Shown here: in pieces, positions 608-48,688 of the stretch
How the letters are laid out: each line of letters opens with the position of its first letter
Numbering within the stretch: position 1 is the first letter of the stretch
Origin: Candidatus Doudnabacteria bacterium
GTDB taxonomy: Bacteria > Patescibacteriota > Doudnabacteria > UBA920
Direction of reading: 5' to 3'
NCBI GenBank assembly: GCA_020850635.1
Contig: JADZEH010000004.1
Span: 11,085 to 75,084 of the forward strand
Length of the DNA stretch: 64,000 nucleotides
The notes under the pieces: generated by a model
Databases searched by the model: none
Seen by the model: the letters and a program-made list of their open reading frames with translations, nothing else
Told to the model about the DNA's origin: nothing
Translations under genes and position numbers: made by a program

Positions 608-1357
608 CTATTCTACAACTGGAATTTGAGTTTGATACTTTCGAGTCAGTCCCAAATAACTTGCGGTAATATCAACAAAAGTTAAACCAAAACTTGGAAT
701 ACCTTTGTCACCCCCACCGCCATCGTATGTGTAAACTGTGACTGTAATAGCCTCACTACTACCTTCATGGAATAATTGAAGATCATACTGCATTGCGGTA
801 TTTAAACTTAAGTCTTCCCATTCTTCGCCGTTTTCAGTGAGAGGATCGAGGGTAGTAGATTTTAAGGTACGTTCACCAGTCGAAGGATTAATCTCATACA
901 AATCAATACGCAAAGGTTCAGCTGCATTACCAGCATACTGAACACGAACAGAACCATAACCACCAGCACCGTAAGGGTCTGCGGAATCAATCAAGTTATA
1001 CTGCCTTGCCGTTCCAGGATCAATTACATCTATAAGCGGCATCGGATAGGTTTGGGTATCCGTAGCCTCAACAAAAACTCCGTTAATTTCATCCCCTCCT
1101 AACAAATAACCATAAGTAACGTTGCGAGAGTATCGAAACAAAGCTTCTTCCGTAACAGCATATGACGCATACAAAGCTCGTTCGGAACGAACAATGTCTG
1201 ACGACGAACGAATTTCTGTTAAAACAATTGTGGCCAAACTAAAACTAATGGCTGTAATTGAGGCCAACACTAAAATCGCCATCAACAAACTGACGCCAGC
1301 TTGATTGTCCTGTTCTTGTTGTTTACTCTGGATTAACATTATTGTCTTGAATATCAT
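608..1357 (-). CDS. PilX-like minor pilin/pseudopilin (N-terminal hydrophobic pilin-like helix AGVSLLMAILVLASITAIS)
   Basis: N-terminal pilin-like transmembrane segment and last position in a run of prepilin genes. The true start may be an internal Met (MLIQSK...). Confidence 0.5.
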   Translation of the reverse strand: MIFKTIMLIQSKQQEQDNQAGVSLLMAILVLASITAISFSLATIVLTEIRSSSDIVRSERALYASYAVTEEALFRYSRNVTYGYLLGGDEINGVFVEATDTQTYPMPLIDVIDPGTARQYNLIDSADPYGAGGYGSVRVQYAGNAAEPLRIDLYEINPSTGERTLKSTTLDPLTENGEEWEDLSLNTAMQYDLQLFHEGSSEAITVTVYTYDGGGGDKGIPSFGLTFVDITASYLGLTRKYQTQIPVVE

Positions 1358-2645: not shown

Positions 2646-3257
2646 TTATGGAACTGAAACGATCCCAGAAACCCCATTAATTATTACGGAACGAGTGGTG
2701 TTTGATTGTGAATCGAGCATTGTAATCGTGACCAGTGAGTTATCTAAATTATCGAGCGCACCCTGATCACGAATGACCGAATTACTGGCACCACTAATAC
2801 TGCAAGTTGTGTCTAAAAACATTTTGTTAAATGGTAAGGAAAAAGCAATTTGAGCGCACCTTGAATCCACTGTTGAGGAACCGAGTGGTTGTTGAGTATC
2901 AACTGCTGTGATTGTAATGCCAGTGGGTAAACTAAAAGTTTCTACTGAGTCAGAGAAATTGTCGTAATCTTGTTGCACCGCTTGCAAAATATACTGCGTG
3001 GGATTTTCTTCATCAAACTTTAAAACATAATACTTCACCGGTCCTTCGGAAGTGTTGCGCGACGACAAAACATAACTTTGAACTTTACGAATATTTGTGA
3101 CCATTTCATTTTGGGCAATCCGTAAATTACGTGGGCCACGTGTCCGAGCATAATTAACTAAAACCGCACCCAAAAACAAGCCCATAATAGCCAGAACTAC
3201 CAAAAGCTCGATAATCGTAAAACCTCGTTGATTTTTGCGTTTTTGTGTTTGTTTCAT
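2646..3257 (-). CDS. Prepilin-type pseudopilin/minor pilin (KNQRG|FTIIELLVVLAIMG)
   Basis: Textbook type IV pilin N-terminus. Confidence 0.7.
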   Translation of the reverse strand: MKQTQKRKNQRGFTIIELLVVLAIMGLFLGAVLVNYARTRGPRNLRIAQNEMVTNIRKVQSYVLSSRNTSEGPVKYYVLKFDEENPTQYILQAVQQDYDNFSDSVETFSLPTGITITAVDTQQPLGSSTVDSRCAQIAFSLPFNKMFLDTTCSISGASNSVIRDQGALDNLDNSLVTITMLDSQSNTTRSVIINGVSGIVSVP

Positions 3258-3308: not shown

Positions 3309-4112
3309 TTAGACCACCCCGACCAGCCCTAGATACCAGGTAAGAAGCTCCCCTCCCCATAATAAACCAGCCACCGCACCAACCGCCAAAAAAGTCCCTA
3401 ATGGCAATTTGCTTTGCATGGTTTTGTTTCCAAACAGTAATAACCCTGTTCCTACTAACCCACCCAATACAAAAGCCAAAAACAACCCCACCCAAATATT
3501 TGGCCAAGCCAAAGCTAACCCTAAAAATATCATAAATTTTACATCACCAAAACCAATCCATTTTCCCTTAGAGATAGACCACAAAGCAAAGAAAAATCCG
3601 AAAGATATTAACCCAGAAACTAGCCCCCCAACGGTGAAGCCTGACAAACTTATGAATGGAACACCACTCATTAAGTCTAAAACAACATTCAATCCCAACA
3701 CCAAAACCGCTGCGGGATAAATGACTTTATCTAAAATTAAAAAATGTTCCAAATCGATGACAAAGACCACAATAAGTACGGCTAAAATTAACCACGTTCT
3801 TAAAATTACAATATAATCCATCGCCGTGACCGGACTCAAAACGTACAAGGCCAGTGCAAAAAACAATCCAGTAAGAAGCTCAATGATGAAATATCTAGGA
3901 GAGATTGGGGAACTGCAACCACGACATTTCCCACGCAAACTAAAATAAGAGACTACAGGGATCAAATCCCAAGCGGTTAGTTGTCGCTTACACGTCACAC
4001 ACTCTGAACGACCACCAATTGAACGCCCCTGAGGTAACCGTAAAATCAGGACGTTTAAAAAGCTCCCAATAATAATTCCATATGTAAATGCAATAGCAAG
4101 CGCTAAATTCAT
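3309..4112 (-). CDS. pilD: Prepilin peptidase (A24 family) PilD
   Basis: Multi-TM protein with CxxC...CxxC zinc motif (CVTCKRQL...CRGCSSPI) and conserved peptidase-domain helices, immediately upstream of prepilin genes. Confidence 0.85.
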   Translation of the reverse strand: MNLALAIAFTYGIIIGSFLNVLILRLPQGRSIGGRSECVTCKRQLTAWDLIPVVSYFSLRGKCRGCSSPISPRYFIIELLTGLFFALALYVLSPVTAMDYIVILRTWLILAVLIVVFVIDLEHFLILDKVIYPAAVLVLGLNVVLDLMSGVPFISLSGFTVGGLVSGLISFGFFFALWSISKGKWIGFGDVKFMIFLGLALAWPNIWVGLFLAFVLGGLVGTGLLLFGNKTMQSKLPLGTFLAVGAVAGLLWGGELLTWYLGLVGVV

Positions 4113-4113
4113 T

Positions 4114-5424
4114 TTATCTCCCTGATCCTGTTAAAACTGAACTTATGGTTTTAAGAATAACTTCGATATCAAACAACACTGAACGATGTTTAATATAGTA
4201 TAAGTCATATTGTAACTTACGTCGGGTTTCCTCAACTGTTCCGGCGTATACATGAAGTTGAGCCCAACCAGTGAGTCCTGGTTTGACGGCATGTCGTTCA
4301 TCGTAAAATGGAATTTGTTTTCGTAGTTCCTCAACAATAGCAACGATTTCAGGTCGAGGCCCAACCAGGCTCATGTCCCCTTTCAAAATCATTAATGACT
4401 GAGGAAGTTCATCCAGCCGGGTTTTTCTTAAAAATTTTCCAACAACGCCCGTTATGCGTTGATCATTTTCAGGAGACCACTCATCTTTAGAATCTACTCT
4501 CATCGTTCGATACTTATAAAGCGTAAATGGCTGACCATCTTTACCAATTCGTTTTTGAGAGAAAAATAATGGCCCAGGTGAGCTTAGTTTGATTAAAATC
4601 GCCACCACTGGAAAAGTCACAATCAAAGCCAGGGTTCCCACTAAACCACAAAGAATATCAATTACTCGTTTTACTAATTTGTAAAAATGCTTCTCGGTAT
4701 AATGAACATTCTGCAAAAACCATAGCTCATTTAAAGTCGGTAAGTATATACTTCTCAACAACTCTTCGTGAAATTGCTTGTGATCCAACAAGCGAATTCC
4801 TTGAGTACGTAATTCGTATAGAGCTTGCCACATATCAGGTCGAGTATAGATCTGATCCGGGATAATCACGACGCTGTTAAGCCTAATCTCCTGGGAATGA
4901 ATTGAAGTTTCGGAAATAAAGTCGACAAAATGAAATCCTAAATACCGATTATTTTCAATGGTATATCGTAAATCAATTAGTTCGTTATCTACGGTTAAAA
5001 TGTAAACCGGAGTAACAAAAGAATTCCTAAATAACAAACGAAGAGTGAGAGCCCATAGTAGTAATAAGACACTCGTAATTAAGATGTGGAGCAACAAAAA
5101 ACGACGCGGGGTAAGAATTAAACCTGGTTGAGCATAAAAATACACAATCGCAATAATACCATTAGCCACCATACTAAACAGTAAAGCCTTGAACAATACC
5201 GACAAGCGACTAAAAGTCTGTTGTTCAAAAAAGCGAAACACAAAAAAACTTACCAACCACAAGACGTAAATAATACTAAACGAGATCAAGTGAGCATTAA
5301 CGCTCTCCTGAGGAAGACCTTGTGGGTACCTAAACAAAATTGTCAGCCACAAGCTCACATAAAGCAAACCAATCGTTGGGACGATAATTAACCAAAATTT
5401 AAGGGCAGAACTAGACAGAGTCAT
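4114..5424 (-). CDS. Polyprenyl-phosphate sugar phosphotransferase (WbaP/WcaJ bacterial sugar transferase family)
   Basis: C-terminal catalytic block VKRVIDILCGLVGTLAL...PGPLFFSQKRIGKDGQPFTLYKYRTM...DELPQ...GDMSLVGPRP with N-terminal TM helices. Confidence 0.85.
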   Translation of the reverse strand: MTLSSSALKFWLIIVPTIGLLYVSLWLTILFRYPQGLPQESVNAHLISFSIIYVLWLVSFFVFRFFEQQTFSRLSVLFKALLFSMVANGIIAIVYFYAQPGLILTPRRFLLLHILITSVLLLLWALTLRLLFRNSFVTPVYILTVDNELIDLRYTIENNRYLGFHFVDFISETSIHSQEIRLNSVVIIPDQIYTRPDMWQALYELRTQGIRLLDHKQFHEELLRSIYLPTLNELWFLQNVHYTEKHFYKLVKRVIDILCGLVGTLALIVTFPVVAILIKLSSPGPLFFSQKRIGKDGQPFTLYKYRTMRVDSKDEWSPENDQRITGVVGKFLRKTRLDELPQSLMILKGDMSLVGPRPEIVAIVEELRKQIPFYDERHAVKPGLTGWAQLHVYAGTVEETRRKLQYDLYYIKHRSVLFDIEVILKTISSVLTGSGR

Positions 5425-5436
5425 AGAGTCTCAGTG

Positions 5437-6150
5437 CTAATGCTTAATAAACTCATAATACATGGATTTTGGAAAAAAGCGATCTCCTATAAGGTTTATA
5501 AGAAATCCGAGCGGAATCAGTACTATCCACGCAGGAAATAGCCATAACCAAGTACTAAACACGAATTCTGGCTTAGTGTAAGTCTGAAGAGCAAAAAGGA
5601 TCGTCCCAAGACGCGAATCACTCCACCGCCCTATTCCTAACTGCGTAGAAGAAGGGTTAACTCGTTTAAATAAATAATAGAGCAATAAGTGATCGATGAA
5701 CCCTTTGCGCTTATATTTAGCTAACAATAATCCTCTCTCGGAAAATAGCTTTTCCATCTCCCCCACTTTAAATATTCTCACATGATGCATCTCTTCAAAA
5801 TAGCTAGGGCGAATTTTTAACAACCACTGTTCGGATTTTTCTGCTGGAACGTTTACCACCAACACACCGTTCGGTTTTAATACACGCACAATCTCATCAA
5901 CAGACTTAATTAAATCATCGACGTGTTCTAACACGTCAATAGCGTATATCCGATCAAAGACTTTATCAGAAAAATCTAAGGACTCAAGACTCATCACGCT
6001 AAATTCTACCGTAGGATGAAGTCGCTTTGCGGTTTCAATTATTTCCGAACTGACATCAATCCCAACGACTTTAGCTTTCCACCTCTTTTGTAAGACTTCA
6101 GCATTACGACCTTTTCCGCAGCCAACCTCTAAAATCTGAAAATCACTCAT
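5437..6150 (-). CDS. Class I SAM-dependent methyltransferase
   Basis: Motif I ILEVGCGKGRN and post-I VIDVLEHV. The start is re-called at MSDFQILEV (cat at 6148-6150), which gives an ATGA overlap with the upstream GT2 stop; the track ORF runs to 6216. Confidence 0.75.
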   Translation of the reverse strand: MSDFQILEVGCGKGRNAEVLQKRWKAKVVGIDVSSEIIETAKRLHPTVEFSVMSLESLDFSDKVFDRIYAIDVLEHVDDLIKSVDEIVRVLKPNGVLVVNVPAEKSEQWLLKIRPSYFEEMHHVRIFKVGEMEKLFSERGLLLAKYKRKGFIDHLLLYYLFKRVNPSSTQLGIGRWSDSRLGTILFALQTYTKPEFVFSTWLWLFPAWIVLIPLGFLINLIGDRFFPKSMYYEFIKH

Positions 6151-7001
6151 ACTAACCTCCGTAAAGAATTTTGGGCCATGCGTATTACAGCAAGCACCAT
6201 CAATCCAATAAACCACAAGGGCTTAAAGACCTGGAACCACATCGAACGAGAATGCTTCGACATATAACGAAAAAAACCCTTGTGAGAATGGTAAATCATT
6301 TTCGCTTTCACTTGTTTTATCGCCTGGCCATAGTAGTGAATAATCTGAGCTTCTGGAACAAACCAAATTTGCCAGCCGGCTTGCTTCACTCGAAAACACA
6401 AATCGACTTCTTCAAAAAGCATAAAAAATCGTTCATCAAACACACCGACTTTATCAAAAACTTCTTTACGAATTAACAAACACGCGCCTTCTGGTTGATC
6501 GACTTCTTTTGTTGAGCGATGGTCAAAGTCACGCATTAAATAATCACTTTTGTTGCCAGCTTTTAAACCGAGTAAGCCATAGATCATGCCTCTAATCGAG
6601 GGGAAGCGCCGACATGATAACTGAACAGTGCCATCAGCATTTAATAACTGTGGTGAGACAATCCCCGCTTGCGGGTGCTGCTGGGCAAAAGCAACCAAAA
6701 TTTTAATTGCTCCTAGTAAAACTTTAGTATCTGGATTTAACAACAAATAATAATCACTTTTTACCGTGGTTAACACTTGATTGTTAGCCGCGCCAAATCC
6801 TTTGTTTTCTTTATTCGCAAGAAGAGTCACGCTGGGAAACTCTGTCCTGACCATCTCTGCAGAGCCATCTATTGAAGCATTGTCGACGACAAAAACAGTG
6901 GTCAGTAATTCAACTTGATTTAACTCGGCAAACAAGCTCGACAAACATTGACGAAGTAAATCTTTAGTATTCCAGCTAACAATTACAACAGAAAGAGTCA
7001 T
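6147..7001 (-). CDS. Family 2 glycosyltransferase
   Basis: N-terminal LSVVIVSWNTKDLLRQCL...VVDNASIDGS typical of GT2 (GT-A fold, DxD-type). Confidence 0.8.
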   Translation of the reverse strand: MTLSVVIVSWNTKDLLRQCLSSLFAELNQVELLTTVFVVDNASIDGSAEMVRTEFPSVTLLANKENKGFGAANNQVLTTVKSDYYLLLNPDTKVLLGAIKILVAFAQQHPQAGIVSPQLLNADGTVQLSCRRFPSIRGMIYGLLGLKAGNKSDYLMRDFDHRSTKEVDQPEGACLLIRKEVFDKVGVFDERFFMLFEEVDLCFRVKQAGWQIWFVPEAQIIHYYGQAIKQVKAKMIYHSHKGFFRYMSKHSRSMWFQVFKPLWFIGLMVLAVIRMAQNSLRRLV

Positions 7002-7004
7002 AAA

Positions 7005-9017
7005 TTATAATGCGATTGGTGGAAAAACTACAGGAAAATAAATCTCTTTAACCGATTCCGCTTCTTTAACTGACTGTAAGAATCTTTTAAATACGATTGT
7101 GTCCGTATTAAGAGCGTACGCTTTTTCTAATGCAAATAGCATTTTTGGTTTATCATTCTCTCCCTGATAGTACTTGGCGAGCAAGATCCAACTATAAAAA
7201 TCATTAGGGTTGAGAATCAAGGCTTGCCTTAAATGGGTCAACATTTTTTCATAATCTTCTAAACGAAAATACGAGTAAGCAAAAGTTCCTTCTGTTAAGG
7301 CGTGACGTGGCTCCATGGCCAAAGTCTGCTCGATGGCGTTAATAATTTCCGCTTTGTCTTGATCATCGTGCGTTTTGTCATAAAGCATGAAGTACAAAAC
7401 AGTTTGACGACGTTGTAAATCTGCCGACATTGGATTAATCCGCTCAGTCTTCCGAATAAGCTCACGAGTCTGTTCAAAATCCAAATCCAATCGTACGCGG
7501 GCAGCAACTTCATACTGGCGGGGTACAGTCATCACCGGATTTAAATATCGCGTCCACCGCGCAAAACGAATTGTCCGCTCATATTGCTTATTATTATATG
7601 ACCTCACAACTTGATATGTAAAAGCGTCTGCCGCCACAAAGCAAAGACTGTAAACAAGAAGTCCGCCAGCAAACACGACTCCCGCAAACTTGGCCCACTT
7701 AAAAAGCATTTTCTCCTGCGGTTGGAAAGACATAACAATAAGTGCACCCAAACAAAAGGCCATCAAATACCATACACCAATAGTCACTGGATTAAAACTT
7801 CCCCCAGCTAAAGCAGCAACTAATGCTGAAATTAAACCCACAACTATGGGATCACGACTTCCGCGAAGCGCACGCCAACCTAAAAATATAACAGAGCAAA
7901 TAATTACTATGAAAGTCGCCAAGGCCGGCAACCCCACCGAGCCACCTATATGCAAAAATATGTTATGTGGATCATCAAACCGTTCGTTTAAAGCTAAAGA
8001 CTGGTCTCCTAACAACCTAAAACCAGTCAAGAAATTACCTGGGCCCGTACCAACCAACGGCCTGTTAGCGATAATTTCAAGCGCATCGTTCCAGGCTAAT
8101 AAACGAAACGAAGAGGTTTGGTCCGTTAAAGATATAACTTCTTTTGCAGCATCAGGGCGATTTAACAAATAAAATGTATAGAAAAATCCGACTGAAAACA
8201 TTAACGTTACAATCAAGCCTACAAACAACCACCTCTTGTTCTTTAGATACAACGAGAAAAATCCAAAACTTCCCAACCCAGCCAACAGGCCAACTATTGC
8301 CCCTCGACTACTAAAACCCATTAAAGCCCATAAAATCAAAACTAAACTTACTCCATAAACGTATCGAACCTGCCTTGATTTTGCCAAGATTAAACAAGTT
8401 GCCGTAATTGGGGCAATACCCGCCAAAAACATACTTGAAAAATTGGGGTTTCCTAAAAAACTTGGTGCAAGTGAACGTACTGTACGATCAAGCCCACTAT
8501 AAAAGCCGAAGCCCTGCTGTTGAATAATTCCATACACAGCCACAGCCACACCAACCACAGATAAAGCTTTGAGTAAAAGGATAATCTTTTCTCGATCCAG
8601 TGACATTGTTAACACGACTATCCAGCCAACCCACAACAAACTAAATAACAAGGAACTTGTAAACCGACCGTACCAACCTACCAAACTTATCACTGGGCTA
8701 TACGAAAAAATTGTTGAAACAAGAGTAAAAACTAAGTACAAGACTAATAATACTGTAATAAATTTAGGTAATCGCCATTGTGCAGATGATTTCTTAAAAA
8801 GATATACCAAAGCCAAGCCAAAACATAACAGCCACATAAATAATTTAGGCGATTCAGAACCATCGCTTAAATAATTAAACATGGCCAACGGTACAAACAA
8901 GCTTCCAAAAAAAACCACGCTAAATAATGAGTCATTCCGATACGGAAAACGTAGAGACTGAAAGATTTTAGTAAAAAAAGAAAAGCGGTTAGATTCCGCC
9001 TCCGAGGTTTCGTTCAT
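7005..9017 (-). CDS. Wzy_C/O-antigen-ligase-family polytopic membrane protein with C-terminal TPR repeats (candidate O-oligosaccharyltransferase or polymerase)
   Basis: At least 10 TM helices, the ligase-type loop motif DPHNIFLHIGGSVGLPAL, and C-terminal TPR-like repeats. Confidence 0.7.
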   Translation of the reverse strand: MNETSEAESNRFSFFTKIFQSLRFPYRNDSLFSVVFFGSLFVPLAMFNYLSDGSESPKLFMWLLCFGLALVYLFKKSSAQWRLPKFITVLLVLYLVFTLVSTIFSYSPVISLVGWYGRFTSSLLFSLLWVGWIVVLTMSLDREKIILLLKALSVVGVAVAVYGIIQQQGFGFYSGLDRTVRSLAPSFLGNPNFSSMFLAGIAPITATCLILAKSRQVRYVYGVSLVLILWALMGFSSRGAIVGLLAGLGSFGFFSLYLKNKRWLFVGLIVTLMFSVGFFYTFYLLNRPDAAKEVISLTDQTSSFRLLAWNDALEIIANRPLVGTGPGNFLTGFRLLGDQSLALNERFDDPHNIFLHIGGSVGLPALATFIVIICSVIFLGWRALRGSRDPIVVGLISALVAALAGGSFNPVTIGVWYLMAFCLGALIVMSFQPQEKMLFKWAKFAGVVFAGGLLVYSLCFVAADAFTYQVVRSYNNKQYERTIRFARWTRYLNPVMTVPRQYEVAARVRLDLDFEQTRELIRKTERINPMSADLQRRQTVLYFMLYDKTHDDQDKAEIINAIEQTLAMEPRHALTEGTFAYSYFRLEDYEKMLTHLRQALILNPNDFYSWILLAKYYQGENDKPKMLFALEKAYALNTDTIVFKRFLQSVKEAESVKEIYFPVVFPPIAL

Positions 9018-9034
9018 ATCTGTATTGTATTCTT

Positions 9035-9430
9035 TTATTTTGAGACCGTAAACTCGCTATACCCCTTAGGTAGACCTCGATAACCGGACGGCAAACAAAC
9101 ATTTAAACTATACTCATCAAATCGGAAATTTTTATACTCAATACTTTGATTACATAGATCACTACTAAACTGAGTAACTGGCCATGGCTCAAAATAACTA
9201 TCCATTAACTCTTCTGTCTCAAATTCAAGCTCGGTGGGGTATCGATCATAGTCACTTTGAAAAAAACCGATGCCTTGAGCAAGTGCCTCAGTATTTAAAA
9301 CAATCAGTTTGCTCTGTGCTCGAGCATGGCCAGAATTAATTCCTAGCCAAATCACCAAGACTAAAGACAGAACCAAAGCAACCACTAAGCTCGTTTGTAA
9401 GATACGGTATTTATCCATAGATACTAACAA
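9035..9430 (-). CDS. Hypothetical small membrane-anchored protein
   Basis: Single N-terminal TM helix, no recognisable domain. Sits between pilA and the Wzy_C gene. Confidence 0.4.
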   Translation of the reverse strand: MLVSMDKYRILQTSLVVALVLSLVLVIWLGINSGHARAQSKLIVLNTEALAQGIGFFQSDYDRYPTELEFETEELMDSYFEPWPVTQFSSDLCNQSIEYKNFRFDEYSLNVCLPSGYRGLPKGYSEFTVSK

Positions 9431-9476
9431 GGGTTCCGGGGATTAACCACGGAACCCTCGACATAATTAACCATGA

Positions 9477-9908
9477 CTATTGGATTCCACCCTGAGTTAG
9501 GGTATGGACTCCGGCCGGACTGACACCACCAGTTACTGCACCCAAACAGAATGTAAGAGCATAAGTACTTGCATCAGCAGCTGCTGCTGAGTATGTGTAT
9601 GTGTTTTGAGTTGAGGTACAGGTACCATCCTGAGGTCCTGGTGCTACTGGGATTTGACCTAAGTAGTCAGTAGCCAACGATGCTAACGCAGGAGGATATG
9701 AGCTCTTGTCGTTGAAATATAGTTCAACCGCGCTTGCAATTTGGCGAACATCGGCCAAACGCTTTGCGTCACGTGATTTCTGACGAGCTGAGTTAAGCGC
9801 CAACAAAACCACGGATGCAAGCAAACCGATGATAGCGATAACGACCAATAATTCAATAAGTGTAAAACCTTTTTGGTTTGTTTTTCTAAACAATTTTTTC
9901 ACCCCCAA
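9477..9908 (-). CDS. pilA: Major type IV pilin (PilA-like)
   Basis: KTNQKG|FTLIELLVVIAIIGLLA with Glu+5 and a C-terminal Cys...Cys disulfide loop. The track start is TTG; a GTG three codons in is an alternative. Confidence 0.8.
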   Translation of the reverse strand: MGVKKLFRKTNQKGFTLIELLVVIAIIGLLASVVLLALNSARQKSRDAKRLADVRQIASAVELYFNDKSSYPPALASLATDYLGQIPVAPGPQDGTCTSTQNTYTYSAAAADASTYALTFCLGAVTGGVSPAGVHTLTQGGIQ

Positions 9909-10029: not shown

Positions 10030-11235
10030 TTATGCCACAGTACTGGCCAAATTGTAAATCGGCAAAAGTACACCGGCAACTAAAATTCCTACTCCAATAC
10101 CAAGAATAATCATAATAATCGGTTCAAGTAAGGTCGAAAGAACCGCAACTTTATCATCAACTTCCTTCTCATAATAATTAGCGAGCTTAGCCAAGATATC
10201 ATCTAACTCAGCACTCTGCTCACCAACGCGGACCATTTGTGTGGTGATATTAGGAAATTCCTTATGTGTCGCCATGGCTTCACTGATACTGCTACCAGTA
10301 CTGACTTTAGAGGCAACCTGATTCAAAATATCTTTATATACCACGTTGTTAATGACATCACCCACAATTTGTATAGCTTTAATAATCGGGATACCACCGG
10401 TAATGAGAGTGGCTAAATTCCGTGAAAAACGAGCTAAATAAATATTATGGAATATCACCCCAAACAAAGGTAACTTAAATTTGATTCCATCACATAACTT
10501 ACGCCCATGCACTGTGTTTACATAATACCGTACTAACAGGACTGCTCCCGCGATAAGCAATAGCACCACCCACCAATAACTTTCGAAAAAATCTGTAAAT
10601 GAAATTAACAAACGACTCACAAACGGAAGCTCCCCTCCTTGCTCCTTAAGTACACCAATAAGCTTAGGCATTACAAATTTAAACATCAAAATCCCAACAA
10701 CTAATAACGCACCTAAAACAAACACCGGATATGTAAAAGCTTTTTTGACGTTAGACCGTAAGTTATAATCTTTCTCTAGCTGATCTGCCAAGTAATTCAA
10801 AGATTTGGCCACTGAACCCGAGGCTTCACCTGCTCTCACTAAACTTACGTAAACATTTCCGAAGGCTTCAGGATGCTTTGATAACGCCAACGAAAAACTT
10901 TCACCATTTTCCACAGAAGTCGTCATATCACGTATCACATTATTCAACTGCTTGCTATCTATTTGACTATCGAGAATTCGAAGTGATTGCAAAATTGGCA
11001 CACGAGCGCCAATTAATGTTGAAAGTTGACGCGAAAACAAAACCAAATCCTTAGAACTAATGTGCTTCGCAAAAGGATTAAGTTGGGCTAAAGGATTTTC
11101 GAACTGTTGCTTTAAGTTAATTATCGTAAAGCCATTTTCAGCAAGCAGAGTCTCAGCTTTTTCCTGACTCAAAGCCACCACAAAACCTTGCTTAATTTGG
11201 CCTTCGTTATTTTTAGCAGTGTAGAAAAACTTCAT
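10030..11235 (-). CDS. pilC: Type IV pilus inner-membrane platform protein PilC (GspF family)
   Basis: Two GspF-type repeats with three TM segments and pilC-size protein (401 aa) next to pilT and pilA. Confidence 0.85.
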   Translation of the reverse strand: MKFFYTAKNNEGQIKQGFVVALSQEKAETLLAENGFTIINLKQQFENPLAQLNPFAKHISSKDLVLFSRQLSTLIGARVPILQSLRILDSQIDSKQLNNVIRDMTTSVENGESFSLALSKHPEAFGNVYVSLVRAGEASGSVAKSLNYLADQLEKDYNLRSNVKKAFTYPVFVLGALLVVGILMFKFVMPKLIGVLKEQGGELPFVSRLLISFTDFFESYWWVVLLLIAGAVLLVRYYVNTVHGRKLCDGIKFKLPLFGVIFHNIYLARFSRNLATLITGGIPIIKAIQIVGDVINNVVYKDILNQVASKVSTGSSISEAMATHKEFPNITTQMVRVGEQSAELDDILAKLANYYEKEVDDKVAVLSTLLEPIIMIILGIGVGILVAGVLLPIYNLASTVA

Positions 11236-11250
11236 AGAAATAATTAACGG

Positions 11251-12321
11251 TTACGACACCAGTGACAAGAAATATTCGTTATCTAGCACAAAATTCTGAG
11301 CAACTTCCATTTCAACCGTCCCCTGCTTAACTAAAGTCGCAAGTATTTTATCGAGCGGCACCATGCCTTCATCGGCGCTAGTATGAATAATGTTGTTAAT
11401 TTCGTAGACTTTGTTTTCACGAATCACGTTTCGAACCGCATGATTTACCACCATAACCTCATACGCCGGAACTCGTCCTCCACCAGTCTTTGGTAATAAA
11501 CGTAAGGAAACTACCCCGACTAGCACGCTAGCGAGCTGAGCGCGGACCTGATTTTGTTGCTCTGCTGGAAATACGTCAACAACACGGTCAATGCTTTGGG
11601 CGGCATCGTTAGTATGCAAAGTTGCAAAAATTAAGTGACCTGTTTCAGCTAATGTCAGTGCTGCCGAAATGGATTCCAAATCACGAATTTCACCAACAAG
11701 CACGACGTTGATATCTTCACGCAACGCTGCTTTAAGTGCTTGGGAAAACGATGGAGTATCAATATTAACTTCACGCTGGCTGATAATCGATTTATCTGGA
11801 GGGAAAATAAATTCAACAGGATCTTCAATTGTTAAGATGTGCTCCCGACGAGTAATATTTATCTGGTTAATCATCGAGGCTAAGGCGGTAGTTTTTCCAT
11901 GACCAGTTGGACCCACCATCAATACCAAACCTTGTTTACGTTCTGTAAACTTATTCAAAATTGGGGGAAGTCCAAGCTCTTCTAAACTCCGAATCTTATT
12001 TGGAATTAAACGAAAGGCGATACCAGAAACTTTTTGTTGTTTATAAACGTTAACACGAAAACGGACATTATCTTTGTAGGTATACGATAAGTCGATATCA
12101 AGTTGCTTATCAAAAATAGTTTTCTGCTCAGGTTGCAACAAAACTCCGATTAAATCATTAATTCGATCGTTACTTAAAACCTCGAAGTCCTCAAGACGAG
12201 TAAGCTGGCTATCAACACGAATAACCGGTGGCTCACCAACCACAAGGTGCAAATCTGATGCGTTGCGCTCTAAAGTCAACGACAACAGTTTTTGTAATTC
12301 TAATTCACTGGCTTTATACAT
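11251..12321 (-). CDS. pilT: Twitching-motility retraction ATPase PilT
   Basis: Walker A GPTGHGKTT, PilT-size (356 aa), and Asp box/His box region typical of PilT/PilU. Confidence 0.85.
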   Translation of the reverse strand: MYKASELELQKLLSLTLERNASDLHLVVGEPPVIRVDSQLTRLEDFEVLSNDRINDLIGVLLQPEQKTIFDKQLDIDLSYTYKDNVRFRVNVYKQQKVSGIAFRLIPNKIRSLEELGLPPILNKFTERKQGLVLMVGPTGHGKTTALASMINQINITRREHILTIEDPVEFIFPPDKSIISQREVNIDTPSFSQALKAALREDINVVLVGEIRDLESISAALTLAETGHLIFATLHTNDAAQSIDRVVDVFPAEQQNQVRAQLASVLVGVVSLRLLPKTGGGRVPAYEVMVVNHAVRNVIRENKVYEINNIIHTSADEGMVPLDKILATLVKQGTVEMEVAQNFVLDNEYFLSLVS

Positions 12322-12712
12322 GGGCGTTAGTATGAGTTAAAAAATTAATTATAGTTCTTACAACCTCTTTAGGGCTTGAATGTTGTTTAGAAAGATGGGC
12401 GGCGATGTTCGTTCCCAAAGATTCTGTAGGTGAGACCACTCCCCCATGGGTTAACAAGACAACGTGGAGGGCTGGATGACTTGCGGTAGCCGCTAACATG
12501 GTGCGCCACAACTGATCATCATTTACAGCTGTACTAAACAAGGCCACAGCCGGCTTATGAATACCAATAGCATTTAAAAAGTGTTCATGGGTACCGACTC
12601 CTAATACTGGCACATGGCTAGTCTCAAGATGTCTCATATATACCGCCAACATCTCTGGCTCAGGCTCATGAATCACAACTACTGGTTCTGAAATTATTAC
12701 AGTCGTATCCAT
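12314..12712 (-). CDS. Hypothetical protein wedged between pilB and pilT (possible degenerate receiver-like fold)
   Basis: 132-aa ORF overlapping both flanking genes (4 nt with pilB, 8 nt with pilT), suggesting translational coupling. No clear motif. Confidence 0.4.
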   Translation of the reverse strand: MDTTVIISEPVVVIHEPEPEMLAVYMRHLETSHVPVLGVGTHEHFLNAIGIHKPAVALFSTAVNDDQLWRTMLAATASHPALHVVLLTHGGVVSPTESLGTNIAAHLSKQHSSPKEVVRTIINFLTHTNAHV

Positions 12713-12714
12713 AG

Positions 12715-14499
12715 CTACTCCGTGGTCACGCGGATAATCTCTTCAAGAGTAGTCTCCCCACGCAAAGCCTTAATGATACCGTCCTGCTTCATAGTTATCA
12801 TACCAACCTTTATAGTCGCTTCATAGATGGTATGAGCTGGAGCCTGTGCAAAAATCATCTCTTGAATTTCAGTTAGCATTGGTAAAACTTCATAAATACC
12901 CATTCGCCCCTTATACCCAGTATTTCCACATTTTTCACAGCCTTTTGGTGCAAATAAAGTTAATTTTTTAGGATCAAAACCAACCACATAATCGGCGGGG
13001 GTCGTTGCGAGCTCTTTTCGGATTTCCTTTTCAATAATAGAGGTAACTTCCATCGGAGTTCTACAACTTTCGCATAATCGACGGACTAAACGTTGCGCCA
13101 TAATCATGTTCATCGAGGCGGCAAGTAAAAATGGCTCAATACCCATGTTAATTAAGCGCGGAATAGCACCAACTGAATTATTTGTATGTAGCGTCGAAAA
13201 CACTAAATGTCCTGTTAACGCAGCGTGAACAGCTAACTCAGCCGTTTCTTGGTCACGAATTTCACCAACCATAATCACGTTAGGGTCCTGACGTAAGATA
13301 CTACGAAGCCCTGTAGCAAAAGTTAAACCAATATCGGGATTAATCTGACTTTGGTTCACGCCTTCCATAAAATACTCAATTGGATCTTCAAGCGTAACAA
13401 TATTAACGTTCGGAGCGTTAAGAAGCGAAAGAATTGAATACAAAGTCGTCGATTTACCACTTCCGGTAGGACCAGTAATCAAGAAGATACCGTGCGGCTT
13501 TTTTATATCCTCAGTGACCCAAGACAAAGCTTTGCCACGAATTCCCAGCTGATCCAAAGTCGGCACACCACTACTCTTGTCGAGTAAACGCATCACCACT
13601 TTTTCCCCGTACATCAACGGTAAAGTTGAAACACGAAAATCTACCGAACGCTTACCAAAGTCCATATGAAAACGACCATCCTGAGGTAAACGTTGTTCAT
13701 CAATCTTTAGGTTCGACAAAATTTTAATACGTGAGATAATCGCCGAATGAACATTTTTAGGAAGTTGTAGGAATGTATGAAGCATGCCGTCAATACGATA
13801 CCGAATGCGAACGTCGTTATCAGAAGGTTCAACGTGAATATCGGAAGCATTAGCATCAACAGCATTATTTAAAATTACGTCCACAATTTTGATTATCGGG
13901 GCGTCTTCTAAAACTTGCTGTTCAGGCTTTCCGTCCTTAACTTGTAAGGGTGTATGCTCTATCTCTTGCTTTTGTTGGATATCTTTCAAAGCCTCACCAA
14001 CAACATTAGTCAAATTCTTTTTATGACCAAGCAGAGCTTCAATTCCGGAAGCAGAAGCAACATATAACTGAATCTGCACGTTCTGTTTTTGACCCAAAAA
14101 CTCCAAAGCTTCCAAAGCCTGTAAATTAGAAGGGTCAACCACGGCAACTTTCAAAATGTTCCCCTGCAACTCAAATGGAACAATCGTATAAAAATTGCGA
14201 GACTCTTCGGGAATTTGATTTATAACTTCAGCCGGGACATTATATTTAGACAAATCAATGTAGGGCAAATTTAAAAAAGCCGCACGTGCCTGCGTGACCT
14301 TTTCTTCTGACATAAGTTTTTGCCCAAGAAGAATCTTTACTATATCCTGAATACCAACCTGACCATTCCCATCAACTAACTTACCCTGCACCTCAGCCAT
14401 TAACTGAGTATGCTCTTTAGGATTGAGAAACGAGTGGTCAAGAAGAAACTGAGCGAACGAAGATTCTGTATGGACCGTGGAAGGCTTTGCCTGTGCCAT
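12715..14499 (-). CDS. pilB: Type IV pilus assembly ATPase PilB (GspE family)
   Basis: N-terminal GspII_E-N-like region, Walker A GPTGSGKST, and tetracysteine zinc motif CESCRTP...CEKCGNTGY. Confidence 0.9.
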   Translation of the reverse strand: MAQAKPSTVHTESSFAQFLLDHSFLNPKEHTQLMAEVQGKLVDGNGQVGIQDIVKILLGQKLMSEEKVTQARAAFLNLPYIDLSKYNVPAEVINQIPEESRNFYTIVPFELQGNILKVAVVDPSNLQALEALEFLGQKQNVQIQLYVASASGIEALLGHKKNLTNVVGEALKDIQQKQEIEHTPLQVKDGKPEQQVLEDAPIIKIVDVILNNAVDANASDIHVEPSDNDVRIRYRIDGMLHTFLQLPKNVHSAIISRIKILSNLKIDEQRLPQDGRFHMDFGKRSVDFRVSTLPLMYGEKVVMRLLDKSSGVPTLDQLGIRGKALSWVTEDIKKPHGIFLITGPTGSGKSTTLYSILSLLNAPNVNIVTLEDPIEYFMEGVNQSQINPDIGLTFATGLRSILRQDPNVIMVGEIRDQETAELAVHAALTGHLVFSTLHTNNSVGAIPRLINMGIEPFLLAASMNMIMAQRLVRRLCESCRTPMEVTSIIEKEIRKELATTPADYVVGFDPKKLTLFAPKGCEKCGNTGYKGRMGIYEVLPMLTEIQEMIFAQAPAHTIYEATIKVGMITMKQDGIIKALRGETTLEEIIRVTTE

Positions 14500-16023: not shown

Positions 16024-17037
16024 CTATTCTTGGTCTCTCATCGCCAACCCAATTGTTACTGGTAACTGGGTCGCAAATCGTTTTATAACTGGTTCAATAC
16101 TTGGATCATAACCAACGTTTGCCAAGGGGTTACCAAATTCAACCGGGATTCCTAAATCTTGAAAATATGTGACGATACCGGGCAAATTTGACCCACCACC
16201 AGTTAGAATTAACTTTTGAACTGGGACAGAACGAGCAGCATATATGCTTACCAACTGCTTAACCTCGTTCTTAATGGTACTCATGACCGGCTTAATCGTT
16301 TCTGGGATAAAATCAGCGTTACTCAACCCAAAATCTTTTTTGAATTGCTCGGCCCGAGGAATACTAACGTTCAAAGTCTTGGCGATAGTATCAGTTATTG
16401 TCGCTCCACCAATGCTTAAATTGCGCGTAAGTTGCAATACCCCATCCATTACAACATTGAGTCCAGTATTACGTGCACCTATATCTATTATAACACTATT
16501 TTTTACAGATGAAGTCGATAAGGAGCGAATAAGTGCCAAAGCTTCAATCTCTATTATAGAGAGCTCAAGCCCGGTCATAGCAAATAACTGAATATAACTC
16601 TGTTGCACCTGCTTAGGGACCGCAATTAACAAGACTTTTTGGCGACCAAGTTGTGAATCCTTGGAAACTACTGACCAGGAAAGAACAACCTCAGCTAATG
16701 GTAGTGGGATGTACTTTTTAGCTTCAAAAGAGATGGCCGATTCCATTTGATCTTCAGAAAGTTGCTGCATCTCAATAACCGAAGTAAATACAGCATTATT
16801 CGGCAAACTAACAATACAATTTTTAGCTGTAACCTGGGCTTCAGCCAGAAGTCTTTTTAATACATCGGCTGCGGTCATAATGCTCATCTGATTGGCATGC
16901 GCGTCAAAAGACACTGAAGCATTAACAATGCCATAAGTATCCAAGGTCTTCTTTGTCCCGTGGGTAACTTGAGCAACTTTAATGAACGCAGTTCCTATAT
17001 CAACACCAACAACGCTTTTATTTTTTGAGAAAAACAT
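16024..17037 (-). CDS. pilM: PilM (actin-like ATPase of T4P alignment complex)
   Basis: VVGVDIGTAFIKVAQV phosphate-1 motif, actin/FtsA-like fold size, first gene of the operon. Confidence 0.8.
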   Translation of the reverse strand: MFFSKNKSVVGVDIGTAFIKVAQVTHGTKKTLDTYGIVNASVSFDAHANQMSIMTAADVLKRLLAEAQVTAKNCIVSLPNNAVFTSVIEMQQLSEDQMESAISFEAKKYIPLPLAEVVLSWSVVSKDSQLGRQKVLLIAVPKQVQQSYIQLFAMTGLELSIIEIEALALIRSLSTSSVKNSVIIDIGARNTGLNVVMDGVLQLTRNLSIGGATITDTIAKTLNVSIPRAEQFKKDFGLSNADFIPETIKPVMSTIKNEVKQLVSIYAARSVPVQKLILTGGGSNLPGIVTYFQDLGIPVEFGNPLANVGYDPSIEPVIKRFATQLPVTIGLAMRDQE

Positions 17038-19885: not shown

Positions 19886-22800
19886 TTACTCGGAAGAGGG
19901 TAAACTCTCTTCTGATAGAGGAGGCGATTGTTCTGGTTGTTCTTCAACAGATGGTGCTGGTTCTTCAACTGGAGGTGATTCTTCTTCTACTAGAGTCTCC
20001 TCTTGAGGAGGCGCTGTTTCATTTGCTGGTTCATTATTTCCCTCAGACGGCTCCTGTTCTTCAGAGGCAGTATTTTCACCAAGAACTTCGGGATTCAATT
20101 CAGTATCATCTTCAACTTCTTCAGCTAGTCCCTCGCTTTCAAAAATCTTTGGATTTTTCACCGCAAGAGCAATCCAGCTCAAAGGCACATCTTTTGGAGC
20201 GGGTTTATTAAGCAAGATTGTAAACCCAAAGACATTCTTCTTTATAACCAAGACTTGAATACCCTGTTCGAATAACTCAATCGCAAGGTCATCTTGTAAC
20301 TTTTGAATTTCTTTAATTTTCTCCACGTCCCCTGTTTTTATAATTTCATTATCAAGTTCACCAGCAATAGAAGCCACAACTACTGGTTGCTCTATATATT
20401 CTTTATCGAACTTAATATCGACACTAGTATGGCCAGCTTTTACCAAAGCGAAGCCCGCAGTATCGTTATTGAGATATGGACGACCAAAGAATGTGACGTC
20501 GCTAAGCATATCAATAATTCCACCAAGCTTACCAATAGCCTCAACTCTCAAACCACCTGTTGTAACTTGAGGAGAAATCACTTCAAACGCAGCACTAACT
20601 CGATCTGTAAACAACTCAGCGGACACACCTTGCCCCGCTGCTACTTTTTCAGCTTTAATATGTCTTAAGAAGACTAAGATTTTTTCGTCAGTAGTTAAAG
20701 AATCATCGATGTCATTATCTAAACCCGTACCAACTAGAGCTTGAGATTCCACACCAGATTCTTCAACCAAACCTTCGGTACTGTCTTCAATTAAATCACC
20801 AACAGCAGAGACCGAGATACGCATCTCTTGCATAAGTTGTTCAATTGGTAAACCAGAGAAGTTACCATGTTCAACGAAAATACTTACTTCACCACACTTG
20901 GTTGTCTCAGGTAGACCCTCACCCATAGCTGAACATACTGCCATGTCTTGTTCAGGAATACTATCTGTTAAAGCTTTACCGATAGTTGGTCCAGCGCCAG
21001 TGGCGCGCATGGCATACCCCGGAATTGACGCCGAGGTCAAATAATCTCCTGCCTTTACTGGTCCGTTTTCCATACTAAATTTCACGGGAATACGACCAGT
21101 CAACGCTATTGCGAAACCATCTTCAGCGTGCAAGCCCAGAATTATACCTGGTTGAGTTGAAACTACACCAAGTATTCCCCCGCTATACCTACGAGTTGAA
21201 CGTACTACGTCGTCGCCATCTCCATTTTTGTCGATAACTACAACTTGACCAGGCTCGAGAGCCTCTGTTGAGTAATAATATTCAGCTAAGTCAGCACCAC
21301 CGGTAAAACCAACTTCAATCCCAGTACTTCCTACGGCTGTAATACCATCAAGAACAATTTCCTGACGAATAGCGTACAATTGGTTGGCAACATAATCCAA
21401 ACCTTGCCCAAGACGGACATCTTCGGTAATAGCTGTAAAGTGAGCTTCAGACGCTATGATAAAAGTTCGAGTTGAAAGATCCATCGAGACTATATCGTCA
21501 TAATCAGTCCCCGCCCAATCTGTACCATCGTCATCGGTTTGACTGGCTTGACTGTGATAAACGTCCGCAACAATACTTGGACCATCTTGGTGATTATAAC
21601 AAGTTACACCACCAGTATCAGTACCACTATTCGTTCCAATACACAACTGACGAGCTTCCCCCAAAGGAGTTTCTCCTGTAATGCCAATACCACCTACGGC
21701 GTCTGAACCACCATATAACGCCTCGGGGTCAATTTCAAAATCTGCTGAAGTATCCATAGTACACGCCCCTGGTACTGCAGGGGTGAACGTTATAGTATCA
21801 GCGGTGTTGGCCGAAATACGACGAGTCAAACCGACACAGTCCGCATCATCACTACCAGTAATCTCGAGAATCGAACCAGCAAAGTCATTGGCAAACCACG
21901 ACTCCCCAGTATCAGTGACCGAGGTTGAAGTCGCAGAAGTGGCATTGGCAACTGTGATTGTTCTCTTAGTAGCACGAGGACGTTCAATGTTAAAATAACG
22001 GCGAACATAGAGCTGGGTCATAGTGGCTTGAGTTGTTGTTCCCACTATATACTGAACATCATCAATAGCCCCATCCCAGGCATTGGTCACCGCCCCGCAG
22101 TTGGCAGTCACAGTTGTGACACACGAAGCCCCAATAGTCACAATTTGGCTTCCATCAAAAGTTGCAGTAAGACCGGTAGCTGTAGAAAGAGTCATACCTT
22201 GGCCATCAATCCACGAATCTACATCATTGGCATTTGTTCGAGTGATAATTAAATTGTGCCACTGGTTATCGTTATAAGCATAAGTCGAAGTTGCGGTAAT
22301 ATCGTATGAGTTTGCTCCACCACCATCAGGACGAGTCCAGGTGGCGTCATCATCATTTGCCACAACAATCTGACCACTAGTATTCATGTAAGCAACCACG
22401 CATCCAATTGCCTGCCCAGGGGTTGCTGTAACACACTTTTCAAAAAGAGTATCAATTGCACCAGAAGGAGCTGTTGTTGAATGCTTAAACCATAGGGAAA
22501 TAGTCCAACCGACAGTCGACATGTTAAACGCCGTGTCTAGGTCACACGTATTATCCTGGTTAGCATCTGAACATAAGAAATCATCAGTATTATCAAATTG
22601 TATAGCCTTTCCTTGAACACCATCTACGCCAAGAGTAGGAGTCCCATTAATTGCCATATCAGTATTTAAAATAGAGACATCTTGGGCCTGTGTGCCCGAA
22701 GTATCATCCATTGGCAAAACCATGTCATTAATGCCGGCAAGCATCATCATTGGGGTCTGGCGCGTAGAATTATAGTACTTAACCCAACCAAGCAGCTGAG

Positions 22801-46868: not shown

Positions 46869-47232
46869 ACGAACTCCTAACCGGTCATCTGACCGAATTC
46901 GGAAGTTGAATAAATAGAACAATCTCTGAAATTGTCCTCCTAAAAATTGCGTAAGAACAAACCAAGTCCAAAAACTTGGGCCTTCTAGGATAACATTCAG
47001 AGCACTTTTGAGCAATGCTCTAAAAGTTACAAAAAATAGCACAATAAAACACCCTTTGCGGGTGCTTGGTGTGCTGGTGTTTAACAGCTGAATAGCGATT
47101 AGAAAATGTGAAATCAATTACGAGTCAATTCGTTTAAGATGTGTAGCTTTCATCGAAATGAAAACTAACGACCACGGAAATAACTGAACAGAAACTTCGA
47201 AAAGCTTTTGAGCAGAGATTTAAATTCCTTAG

Positions 47233-48688
<1,456 letters not shown>

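Follow-up and report, generated by a model that had tools for sequence, protein, structure and literature searches.

Bacteria of the candidate phyla radiation (CPR, or Patescibacteria) are thought to depend on type IV pili for finding and holding their host cells. We analysed a 64,000-nucleotide (nt) stretch of DNA from an ultrasmall Candidatus Doudnabacteria bacterium (contig JADZEH010000004.1; this whole stretch is referred to below as the window), in which the open reading frames (ORFs) and their Pfam matches indicate that the first 17 kb are a single type IV pilus locus on the minus strand. Between the genes for the major pilin and the prepilin peptidase PilD, this locus encodes a 670-residue protein in which a polytopic Wzy_C (O-antigen-ligase-type) domain is followed by a tetratricopeptide repeat (TPR) domain. 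We propose, with a probability of roughly 65%, that this Wzy_C-TPR protein is a pilus-dedicated O-oligosaccharyltransferase (O-OTase) that uses glycans linked to undecaprenyl pyrophosphate (Und-PP) and that belongs to none of the PglL, TfpO/TfpM or TfpW groups. The pili of this bacterium are most likely sugar-coated.

Protein glycosylation in CPR bacteria has been described as unexplored, with Saccharibacteria pilins only run through a site predictor (PMC11623550). Full-text literature searches turned up no publication that connects CPR pili with an enzyme of the O-antigen-ligase type, and a conserved transferase embedded in the pilus operon provides a concrete gene for testing CPR pilus glycosylation.

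The Wzy_C-TPR protein has the predicted fold and catalytic residues of an Und-PP-glycan transferase

An AlphaFold2 (AF2) model of the Wzy_C-TPR protein, built from an alignment of 25 homologs, was confident (predicted local distance difference test score [pLDDT] 87.8; predicted template-modelling score [pTM] 0.86). Its best fold match in the PDB was the O-antigen ligase WaaL (7tpg_B; E 1.3e-5; template-modelling score 0.64 on the target), and the remaining matches were TPR proteins. A family profile of the membrane domain alone matched a single PDB sequence, again WaaL 7tpg (E 1.8e-10), while in phmmer searches against the PDB the whole protein matched TPR proteins only and the transmembrane (TM) domain alone matched nothing. 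All ten family members searched (10/10) matched PF04932.

The profile alignment to WaaL places SSR238G, R305 and FDDxH351N opposite the corresponding WaaL residues. Ten residues (R118, R238, R305, W309, G323, G325, D348, D349, H351 and N352) are identical in all 46 sequences compared from genomes, a set in which overall identity falls to 24-30% and of which 26 members come from loci without glycan genes. The Arg/Arg/His triad of Escherichia coli WaaL (R215/R288/H338) is essential and is conserved in PglL (R224/R298/H349; PMC3643930), and R238/R305/H351 have the order and spacing of both triads. A model of PglS led to the proposal that the pyrophosphate is coordinated by the arginines, with the histidine serving as the base (PMC12800693). 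Hydropathy, the positive-inside rule and the WaaL register together predict 13 TM helices, with the N terminus inside and the catalytic loop (residues 287-361) outside; with 13 helices, the C-terminal TPR domain of ~200 residues should also lie outside the cell. Fold and catalytic residues, as modelled and aligned, are thus predicted to be those of Und-PP-glycan transferases.

An earlier interpretation of this DNA (the sequence-only reading) had described the protein as a Wzy_C protein with TPR repeats and had proposed that it belongs to a block that glycosylates the pilin. The Wzy_C assignment held (71 bits). Single TPR matches in Pfam all fell below the gathering score, and the TPR region (approximately residues 479-652) is backed instead by similarity to solved consensus TPR proteins (E 8.8e-15) and by the confident AF2 model.

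The Wzy_C-TPR gene lies between the pilin gene and pilD throughout the family

A word-indexed search recovered 25 full-length Wzy_C-TPR homologs (631-689 residues; 26-96% identity), and a profile search of 1.84 billion representatives yielded 150 best matches with E-values from 1e-253 to about 1e-87. Most of these 150 were full-length (~620-700 residues) and the others look like fragments; even the last of them still belong to the family. A scan of one genome per species gave 52 loci from metagenome-assembled genomes (MAGs) of Patescibacteria, named Candidatus Doudnabacteria or auto-labelled Saccharibacteria. The label "Doudnabacteria-like" accordingly reflects the submitters' names for related MAGs, many of which carry the automatic Saccharibacteria label.

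We compared gene order across about 52 species-level genomes and additional metagenome contigs, with Wzy_C identities down to 24-26%, reading each locus both from called genes with Pfam matches and by tblastn with the window proteins. About 65 related loci were examined in all, and wherever a locus extended far enough to be assessed, the Wzy_C-TPR gene lies between the major pilin gene and pilD; its recurrence in more than 60 independent loci places the arrangement far beyond chance. The order pilB-pilT-pilC-pilin-...-Wzy_C-...-pilD-minor pilins 1-4 is kept, including the order of the four minor pilin genes, and a LysM gene and ligA usually come next. Two of the most distant family members among the matches listed show the same pilin-Wzy_C-pilD order. 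Distant Wzy_C relatives outside the family are found elsewhere: P0028 (neighbours Wzz, a second Wzy_C, a family-4 glycosyltransferase [GT4] and a phosphoglycosyltransferase [PGT]) and P0039 (among GT4s and a PGT) are encoded in polysaccharide loci without pilins. Neither Wzx nor Wzz is encoded in the cluster or in any related locus, and no ABC exporter or S-layer gene occurs in or beside the cluster in any locus.

These results bear on a pattern named beforehand as evidence against pilin glycosylation, namely grouping of the protein with exopolysaccharide (EPS) polymerases and occurrence of similar clusters away from pilin genes. The opposite was found, as every readable family member lies between pilin and pilD, and a pilus-linked function is favoured. 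Together with the WaaL fold and the catalytic residues, the position supports the interpretation that this locus glycosylates its pilin.

The glycan genes form a variable cassette present in one clade

In the window, the Wzy_C-TPR gene and pilD are separated by genes for a family-2 glycosyltransferase (GT2), an S-adenosylmethionine (SAM)-dependent methyltransferase and a large PGT. The sequence-only reading had called the last of these WbaP-type. Its place in the initiating-PGT superfamily was borne out by the curated model TIGR03025 (309.9 bits; cutoff 295.55), but its scores against the WbaP (175 versus 403 bits) and WcaJ (257 versus 411 bits) equivalogs fell below the cutoffs, so it is best regarded as a large member of the WbaP/WcaJ superfamily and not as WbaP itself. 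The GT2 reached no NCBIfam equivalog at cutoff; it would, we infer, add a second sugar to the lipid-linked primer. The methyltransferase is a probable glycan O-methyltransferase. A role for it as the pilin N-methylase was rejected, since the A24_N domain of PilD itself is intact and retains the Cys motifs.

Among 54 loci that hold both the Wzy_C gene and pilD, the two genes abut (gap <200 bp) in 31, with no glycan genes there, about 21 carry an insert of 2.5-4.8 kb, and two carry a single unassigned ORF. The PGT is present in every larger insert and is the one constant cassette gene. In the subclade of the window it is accompanied by GT2 and Methyltransf_11, and in other cassettes by an FkbM-type methyltransferase alone, by two Methyltransf_23 genes and a GT2, or by a methyltransferase, a GDP-mannose 4,6-dehydratase and a GT4; the methyltransferase slot is thus filled from three different Pfam families in relatives. 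Such variability of the tailoring genes is the pattern of a surface-glycan locus. The smallest combination, PGT plus methyltransferase, suggests that the enzyme accepts very short donors. Unassigned genes in the slot between Wzy_C and pilD were seen in L046 (12023-13537; 504 residues, no Pfam match), L003 (12210-12884, minus strand, opposite in orientation; 224 residues) and L058 (11174-11953; 259 residues).

In a PilC tree, loci with the cassette group into one clade and those without it into the other, and the Wzy_C tree is broadly congruent. This distribution suggests that the enzyme is ancestral to the operon and that the cassette was captured once and then diversified; the GC content of the cassette showed no clear deviation as a sign of horizontal acquisition. 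The Wzy_C-TPR protein and the small membrane protein encoded beside it are therefore core pilus-locus genes, and GT2, methyltransferase and PGT are an inserted, variable accessory module, which divides what had been proposed to be one pilin-glycosylation unit: the enzyme and its small neighbour stand as its core, and the glycan genes belong to a single clade. The constancy of the PGT fits the enzyme, as its product, an Und-PP-sugar, belongs to precisely the class of donors on which WaaL-, PglL- and TfpO-type transferases act. The catalytic residues are also conserved in genomes without the cassette, which presumably obtain their glycan from genes at another location, in the manner of TfpO and PglL.

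A Wzy_C(+TPR) protein, a WbaP-like PGT, a GT2 and a terminal O-methyltransferase are also the gene set of Gram-positive S-layer glycosylation (PMC2943079). The enzyme might attach a surface glycan, or polymerise one, on an acceptor other than pilin, such as a cell-wall polymer, a lipid or a surface protein (of the S-layer or another, in the manner of WsaB/WsfB), its place in the operon then reflecting co-regulation or polysaccharide export by the pilus machine as proposed for cyanobacterial Hps. The weak, sub-threshold similarity of the GT2 to HpsE and the presence of distant Wzy_C relatives in EPS loci would agree with such a role. A polymerase, however, would be expected to travel with its glycan locus, whereas this enzyme is wedged between pilin and pilD across the whole family, mostly without glycan genes, and no locus has a Wzz, Wzx, ABC exporter or S-layer gene in or beside the cluster; we therefore consider a non-pilin acceptor unlikely, although it is the strongest of the alternatives. 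Hps-like secretion of polysaccharide by pseudopilins was considered and set aside, with far sub-threshold matches to HpsE and HpsC only and no exporter.

The major pilin has a hydroxyl-rich loop between two conserved cysteines

The precursor of the window pilin has the leader MGVKKLFRKTNQKG, with FTLIE following the cleavage site, and its C terminus reads ...HTLTQGGIQ. Across pilin orthologs from more than 50 loci, the N-terminal half, C94 and C118 do not vary, and the pilins share a conserved tail, FCLGAxTGG…HTL(T/S)xxGIQ, in which the Thr of xTGG is at least 90% conserved. The segment between the two cysteines is variable and contains 33% Ser+Thr (45% with Tyr), compared with 17% for the whole protein. 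A Ser/Thr-rich stretch had been placed at the pilin C terminus; such a stretch exists, but it lies between the cysteines. All 26 aligned pilins end in G-I/L-Q or G-I-N and a few others in L or R. The peptide TSTQNTYTYSAAAADASTYALTF is a candidate glycan-bearing peptide. A second pilin, 37-57% identical to the window pilin, is encoded between pilC and the main pilin gene in five loci of the cassette clade (L009, L012, L013, L014 and L028; ~8830-9420 in each), which therefore have two candidate major pilins upstream of the enzyme.

A strong RNA hairpin comes immediately after the pilin stop codon. In 50 of 52 related loci (L001-L059), the 60 nt downstream of this stop likewise contain a hairpin with a minimum free energy (MFE) of -15 kcal/mol or lower, with differing sequences and a mean MFE of -24.5 compared with a background of -9.5. 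The hairpin is likely a terminator or attenuator that gives high pilin and lower downstream expression. Such a layout is typical of a highly expressed major pilin followed by lower-expressed accessory genes and fits an enzyme-substrate relationship.

The small membrane protein is a pilin paralog that lacks the cleavage motif

The small protein encoded beside the enzyme spans the membrane once and matches nothing in Pfam or NCBIfam; its start is likelier the ATG at 9418 than the TTG at 9430 given by the ORF tool. When an alignment of 26 orthologs was compared with the pilin alignment by hhalign, the two matched over essentially their full length (119 columns; probability 99.0%; E 2.5e-18), with the hydrophobic helix, a D-x-x-R-Y/F-P motif and both cysteines (…C…FCL…) in register. 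On the strength of this comparison, we identify the small protein as a pilin paralog. An AF2 model, made from a shallow alignment of four close homologs, was unusable (pLDDT 44.7).

The prepilin cleavage motif (Gly-1/Phe+1/Glu+5) is not retained: the 26 paralog sequences have no conserved Gly or Glu at the aligned positions, Q8 of the paralog aligns to Glu5 of the pilin, and DKYRILQ-like sequences stand where the pilin has KG and, past the cleavage site, FTLIE. Prepilin peptidases require Gly at position -1; the paralog should therefore stay uncleaved in the membrane, with its pilin head outside. Nearly all related loci encode it, in front of either Wzy_C or pilD. The position between pilin and Wzy_C, kept in the window, is the ancestral layout, and the position just before pilD is that of the sister clade. 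Regardless of the function of the enzyme, an uncleavable pilin paralog is a novel type of accessory protein for pili.

These observations raise the possibility that the enzyme is an O-OTase whose substrate is the paralog, or one of the downstream minor pilins, and not the major pilin. PglS and TfpM each modify a pilin-like protein encoded directly upstream (PMC9829042, PMC3643930), and the paralog is encoded immediately upstream of Wzy_C in the window and in most loci and co-occurs with the enzyme throughout the family. Its Cys-Cys segment, however, is not Ser/Thr-rich (19% Ser+Thr, against 33% in the pilin), that of the window copy being nearly without hydroxyl residues, and in the sister clade the paralog has moved away and the pilin gene abuts that of the enzyme. 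We therefore regard this substrate as improbable, slightly more so than a non-pilin acceptor.

Weighing pilin glycosylation

That the Wzy_C-TPR protein is a non-catalytic, TPR-based scaffold of the pilus machine descended from a glycan ligase is very improbable, for although TPR domains are protein-interaction modules and the gene is a core member of the operon even where glycan genes are not adjacent, ten outward catalytic-loop residues including Arg/Arg/His are invariant in 46 of 46 sequences, which is unexpected for a degenerate enzyme, and one clade recruited a PGT beside it.

Several observations speak against the proposal that the enzyme is an O-OTase acting on the major pilin. Most relatives have no glycan genes in the slot beside it, and no Wzx- or PglK-type flippase is encoded in the cluster. 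In the window, the gene directly upstream of Wzy_C is that of the paralog and not that of the pilin; our conjecture, held with little confidence, is that the paralog serves the TPR domain as an adaptor or mimics its substrate. No C-terminal Ser or Thr was found in any of the pilins compared, which excludes the mode of modification used by TfpO/TfpM, and the Ser/Thr/Tyr-rich Cys-Cys loop and the Thr of xTGG are candidate acceptor sites only. PglL_A (PF15864) had no match in the full protein at E ≤ 0.01 and in none of ten family members at E ≤ 10, and Wzy_C_2 likewise matched 0 of 10 members even at E ≤ 10. Glycosylation of the pilin is itself deduced from these genes.

Proposed pathway

Family models assign a PGT, GT2, SAM-dependent methyltransferase, WaaL-fold transferase with an intact triad, PilD and pilins to this locus, and these activities could be combined as follows. 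On the cytoplasmic face, the PGT would place a sugar-1-phosphate on undecaprenyl phosphate, as its match to a curated family hidden Markov model suggests; the GT2 would add a second sugar and the methyltransferase would cap it, giving a methylated disaccharide on Und-PP. A flippase encoded outside the cluster, which is a gap in the model, would then turn this short Und-PP-glycan over. On the outer face, R238 and R305 of the WaaL-like domain may bind the pyrophosphate and H351 may drive en bloc transfer to a hydroxyl of the membrane-anchored pilin, probably in the Ser/Thr/Tyr-rich Cys-Cys loop or the xTGG turn, before or around processing by PilD. The pilin could be recognised by the outward TPR domain, possibly with the uncleavable paralog, a speculative step that adds to the weak points listed above. 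PilD and the PilBC machine would finally assemble the glycosylated subunits. The enzyme and the paralog would be the ancestral core of this pathway, with the donor glycan made elsewhere in the genome in most relatives, and the clade of the window would have captured a dedicated, fast-changing glycan cassette beside the enzyme. An ABC exporter of the PglK/MsbA type (ABC_membrane + ABC_tran) is encoded at 51793-53619 (minus strand), 42 kb from the cluster; that this sole flippase candidate seen in the window serves the pathway is pure conjecture.

If the proposed pathway is correct, the surface shown to hosts and phages would be a coat of glycan that differs even among closely related cells. If, further, the enzyme and the paralog are a hard-wired pair in the pilus operon of the whole lineage, a more tentative proposal taken up below, pilus glycosylation would be constitutive and perhaps required for assembly or host attachment in these episymbionts, and the swappable PGT/glycosyltransferase/methyltransferase cassette would generate pilus glycan serotypes. 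The family may also be of use in glycoengineering, its acceptor being neither the C-terminal residue used by TfpO/TfpM nor recognised through a motif of the PglL type.

Gene layout of the pilus locus and other features of the window

Transcription of the locus runs from pilC through the pilin, paralog, Wzy_C-TPR, GT2, methyltransferase, PGT and pilD genes to the four minor pilin genes (Table 1). The co-oriented, closely spaced arrangement described in the sequence-only reading was confirmed: all seven genes from pilin to pilD run along the minus strand, at intergenic distances of 58, 17, 3, -4, 12 and 1 nt in that order, and the stop of the GT2 gene overlaps the start of the methyltransferase gene in an ATGA that can be read at 6150-6147. 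A promoter scan did not rise above the shuffled expectation (27 hits versus 19.4; standard deviation 4.9).

Table 1. Features of the type IV pilus locus in window coordinates, in order of transcription
Feature	Position	Strand	Evidence or remark
pilM	16024-17037	-	PilM_2; upstream end of pilus locus
pilN, pilO and a gene for a 93-residue protein	between pilM and pilB	-	ORF list
pilB	12715-14499	-	ORF list
Gene for a 132-residue protein, between pilB and pilT	12314-12712	-	no Pfam match in window
pilT	11251-12321	-	ORF list
pilC, platform protein; upstream border of module	10030-11235	-	T2SSF E 1.7e-62
Major type IV pilin, 143-residue precursor	9477-9908	-	N_methyl motif E 2e-10
RNA hairpin after pilin stop	9428-9460	-	MFE -22.3 kcal/mol, z -4.2
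Bitopic membrane protein, 127 residues (pilin paralog)	9035-9418	-	no Pfam or NCBIfam match
Wzy_C-TPR protein, 670 residues	7005-9017	-	PF04932, 71.1 bits versus cutoff 31.7
GT2, 284 residues, C-terminal hydrophobic helix	6147-7001	-	Glyco_tranf_2_3 E 1.8e-17; Glycos_transf_2 E 1.5e-16
Class I SAM-dependent methyltransferase, 237 residues from ATG 6150, hydrophobic C-terminal tail	5437-6150	-	Methyltransf_11 E 8e-24
Large polyprenyl-phosphate hexose-1-phosphate transferase (PGT), 436 residues	4114-5424	-	Bac_transf E 6e-62
PilD prepilin peptidase/N-methyltransferase; downstream border of module	3309-4112	-	A24_N_bact E 6e-30; Peptidase_A24 E 6e-12
Four minor pilin or pilin-like genes	2646-3257, 1934-2677, 1323-1934, 608-1357	-	first: N_methyl E 7e-10

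The slot of the 132-residue protein between pilB and pilT matches Response_reg in relatives (L007 and one JGI contig), and the window protein may be a degenerate receiver domain within the pilus operon. A gene for a CAP-domain (cysteine-rich secretory) protein lies ~21 kb upstream of pilM (38123-39469, minus strand); CAP genes are also found upstream of the pilus operon, and much closer to it, in L004 (1-88) and L007 (386-1702). Two giant proteins are encoded on the minus strand at 32106-37670 and 19886-26047: the first (1854 residues) has a Peptidase_S74 domain (endosialidase intramolecular chaperone) at residues 1578-1632, a domain known from the tail fibres or spikes of phages, whereas Pfam gave no match for the second (2053 residues). 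A complete 16S rRNA gene (47233-48695, minus strand) is followed by a gene for a purL-type FGAM synthase (42975-47117, minus strand) and not by 23S; no large-subunit rRNA was found anywhere in the 64 kb, and the rRNA genes are therefore taken to be unlinked. A 618-residue PMT_2/YkcB-type GT-C glycosyltransferase is encoded at 62001-63857 (plus strand), and in L006 the pilus locus itself is flanked by PMT_2 genes; the window protein is predicted to provide a second surface glycosylation activity in the same organism, dependent on polyprenyl-phosphate sugars.

Comparison with known glycan transferases

The closest solved fold, that of WaaL (7TPG), belongs to an O-antigen ligase with 12 TM helices and no TPR domain that transfers glycans to lipid A-core. 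To our knowledge, Patescibacteria are generally described as being without an outer membrane and lipopolysaccharide and are not known to make lipid A-core; as no such acceptor is expected, a WaaL role is unlikely. The O-unit polymerase Wzy works with Wzx and Wzz encoded in the same glycan locus, and neither is present in this cluster.

The recognised O-OTase families are four, PglL, PglS, TfpO and TfpM, all from Proteobacteria (PMC9829042), and Wzy_C O-OTases adjoin the gene for their pilin substrate in the case of TfpO, TfpM, PglS and 21 of 31 PglL homologs (PMC9829042, PMC3643930). The Wzy_C-TPR protein resembles PglL (Neisseria and others) and PglS (Acinetobacter) in being a WaaL-like GT-C enzyme with the R/R/H triad. 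Those enzymes use internal acceptor sites and often adjoin a pilin-like substrate (PMC3643930, PMC12800693), and a published model of PglS shows 13 TM helices and places the C-terminal domain in the periplasm (PMC12800693), the same plan as proposed here. Unlike PglL, which glycosylates internal Ser residues in low-complexity regions of many proteins and is told apart from WaaL by its PglL_A motif, the protein gives no PglL_A or Wzy_C_2 signal and its C-terminal domain is a TPR array; by counting of positions, not by alignment, the residue equivalent to E404 of PglL would be Phe408.

With TfpO (PilO; Pseudomonas aeruginosa group I and Acinetobacter) and TfpM (Moraxellaceae) it shares a place in the pilin locus, where a Wzy_C enzyme is co-oriented with pilA; in the sister clade it is encoded directly downstream of the pilin, as those enzymes are, and in the window only the paralog gene intervenes. 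TfpO and TfpM are dedicated to pilin and draw on Und-PP-linked glycans, which are often produced by genes at other sites in the genome (PMC9829042). They are, however, ~425-460 residues long and have no C-terminal domain (PMC9829042), whereas the present enzyme has 670 residues with a TPR domain of ~200; they modify a C-terminal Ser/Thr of the pilin, whereas the aligned pilins here end in Gln or Asn; and here the host is a Patescibacterium and a paralog accompanies the enzyme.

TfpW of P. aeruginosa group IV is likewise a polytopic glycosyltransferase of ~650 residues whose large C-terminal TPR domain lies in the periplasm; its gene follows pilA directly and is accompanied by that of the small membrane accessory protein TfpX (bioRxiv 10.1101/2020.04.19.049825). 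TfpW, however, is an ArnT/Emb-like GT-C enzyme that uses decaprenyl-P-arabinofuranose, whereas a WaaL/Wzy_C domain is found here and the primer enzyme would make a pyrophosphate-linked donor. TfpX, TfpY and TfpZ have three N-terminal TM helices and a periplasmic beta domain (235-245 residues; PMC11841053), and identity of the small protein with them was ruled out on architecture, given its single TM helix, its 127 residues and its likeness to pilin. Since the motifs of PglL, the acceptor and size of TfpO/TfpM and the catalytic fold of TfpW are all absent, the enzyme is placed outside these groups.

The monoderm WsaB/WsfB systems of Geobacillus and Paenibacillus combine a Wzy_C O-OTase with a WbaP-like PGT, GT2-type transferases and a terminal O-methyltransferase (PMC2943079). 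WsfB, a Wzy_C protein with a C-terminal TPR motif, is a precedent for the fusion, while WsaB works with a separate TPR protein (PMC2943079). Going by their descriptions, those clusters are set apart by S-layer genes, ABC exporters and long glycans; here there is a pilus operon with one glycosyltransferase and no exporter.

Taken together, these comparisons suggest that the Wzy_C-TPR protein probably represents a new O-OTase family with a new accessory partner. A broader proposal, which we advance tentatively and at somewhat less than even odds, is that it constitutes a fifth family of pilin O-OTases and the first outside Proteobacteria, in which a WaaL-like transferase with an external TPR receptor domain acts with a pilin paralog that escapes cleavage, stays in the membrane and serves as an adaptor or mimics the substrate, the pair being hard-wired into the pilus operon of a whole Patescibacteria lineage.

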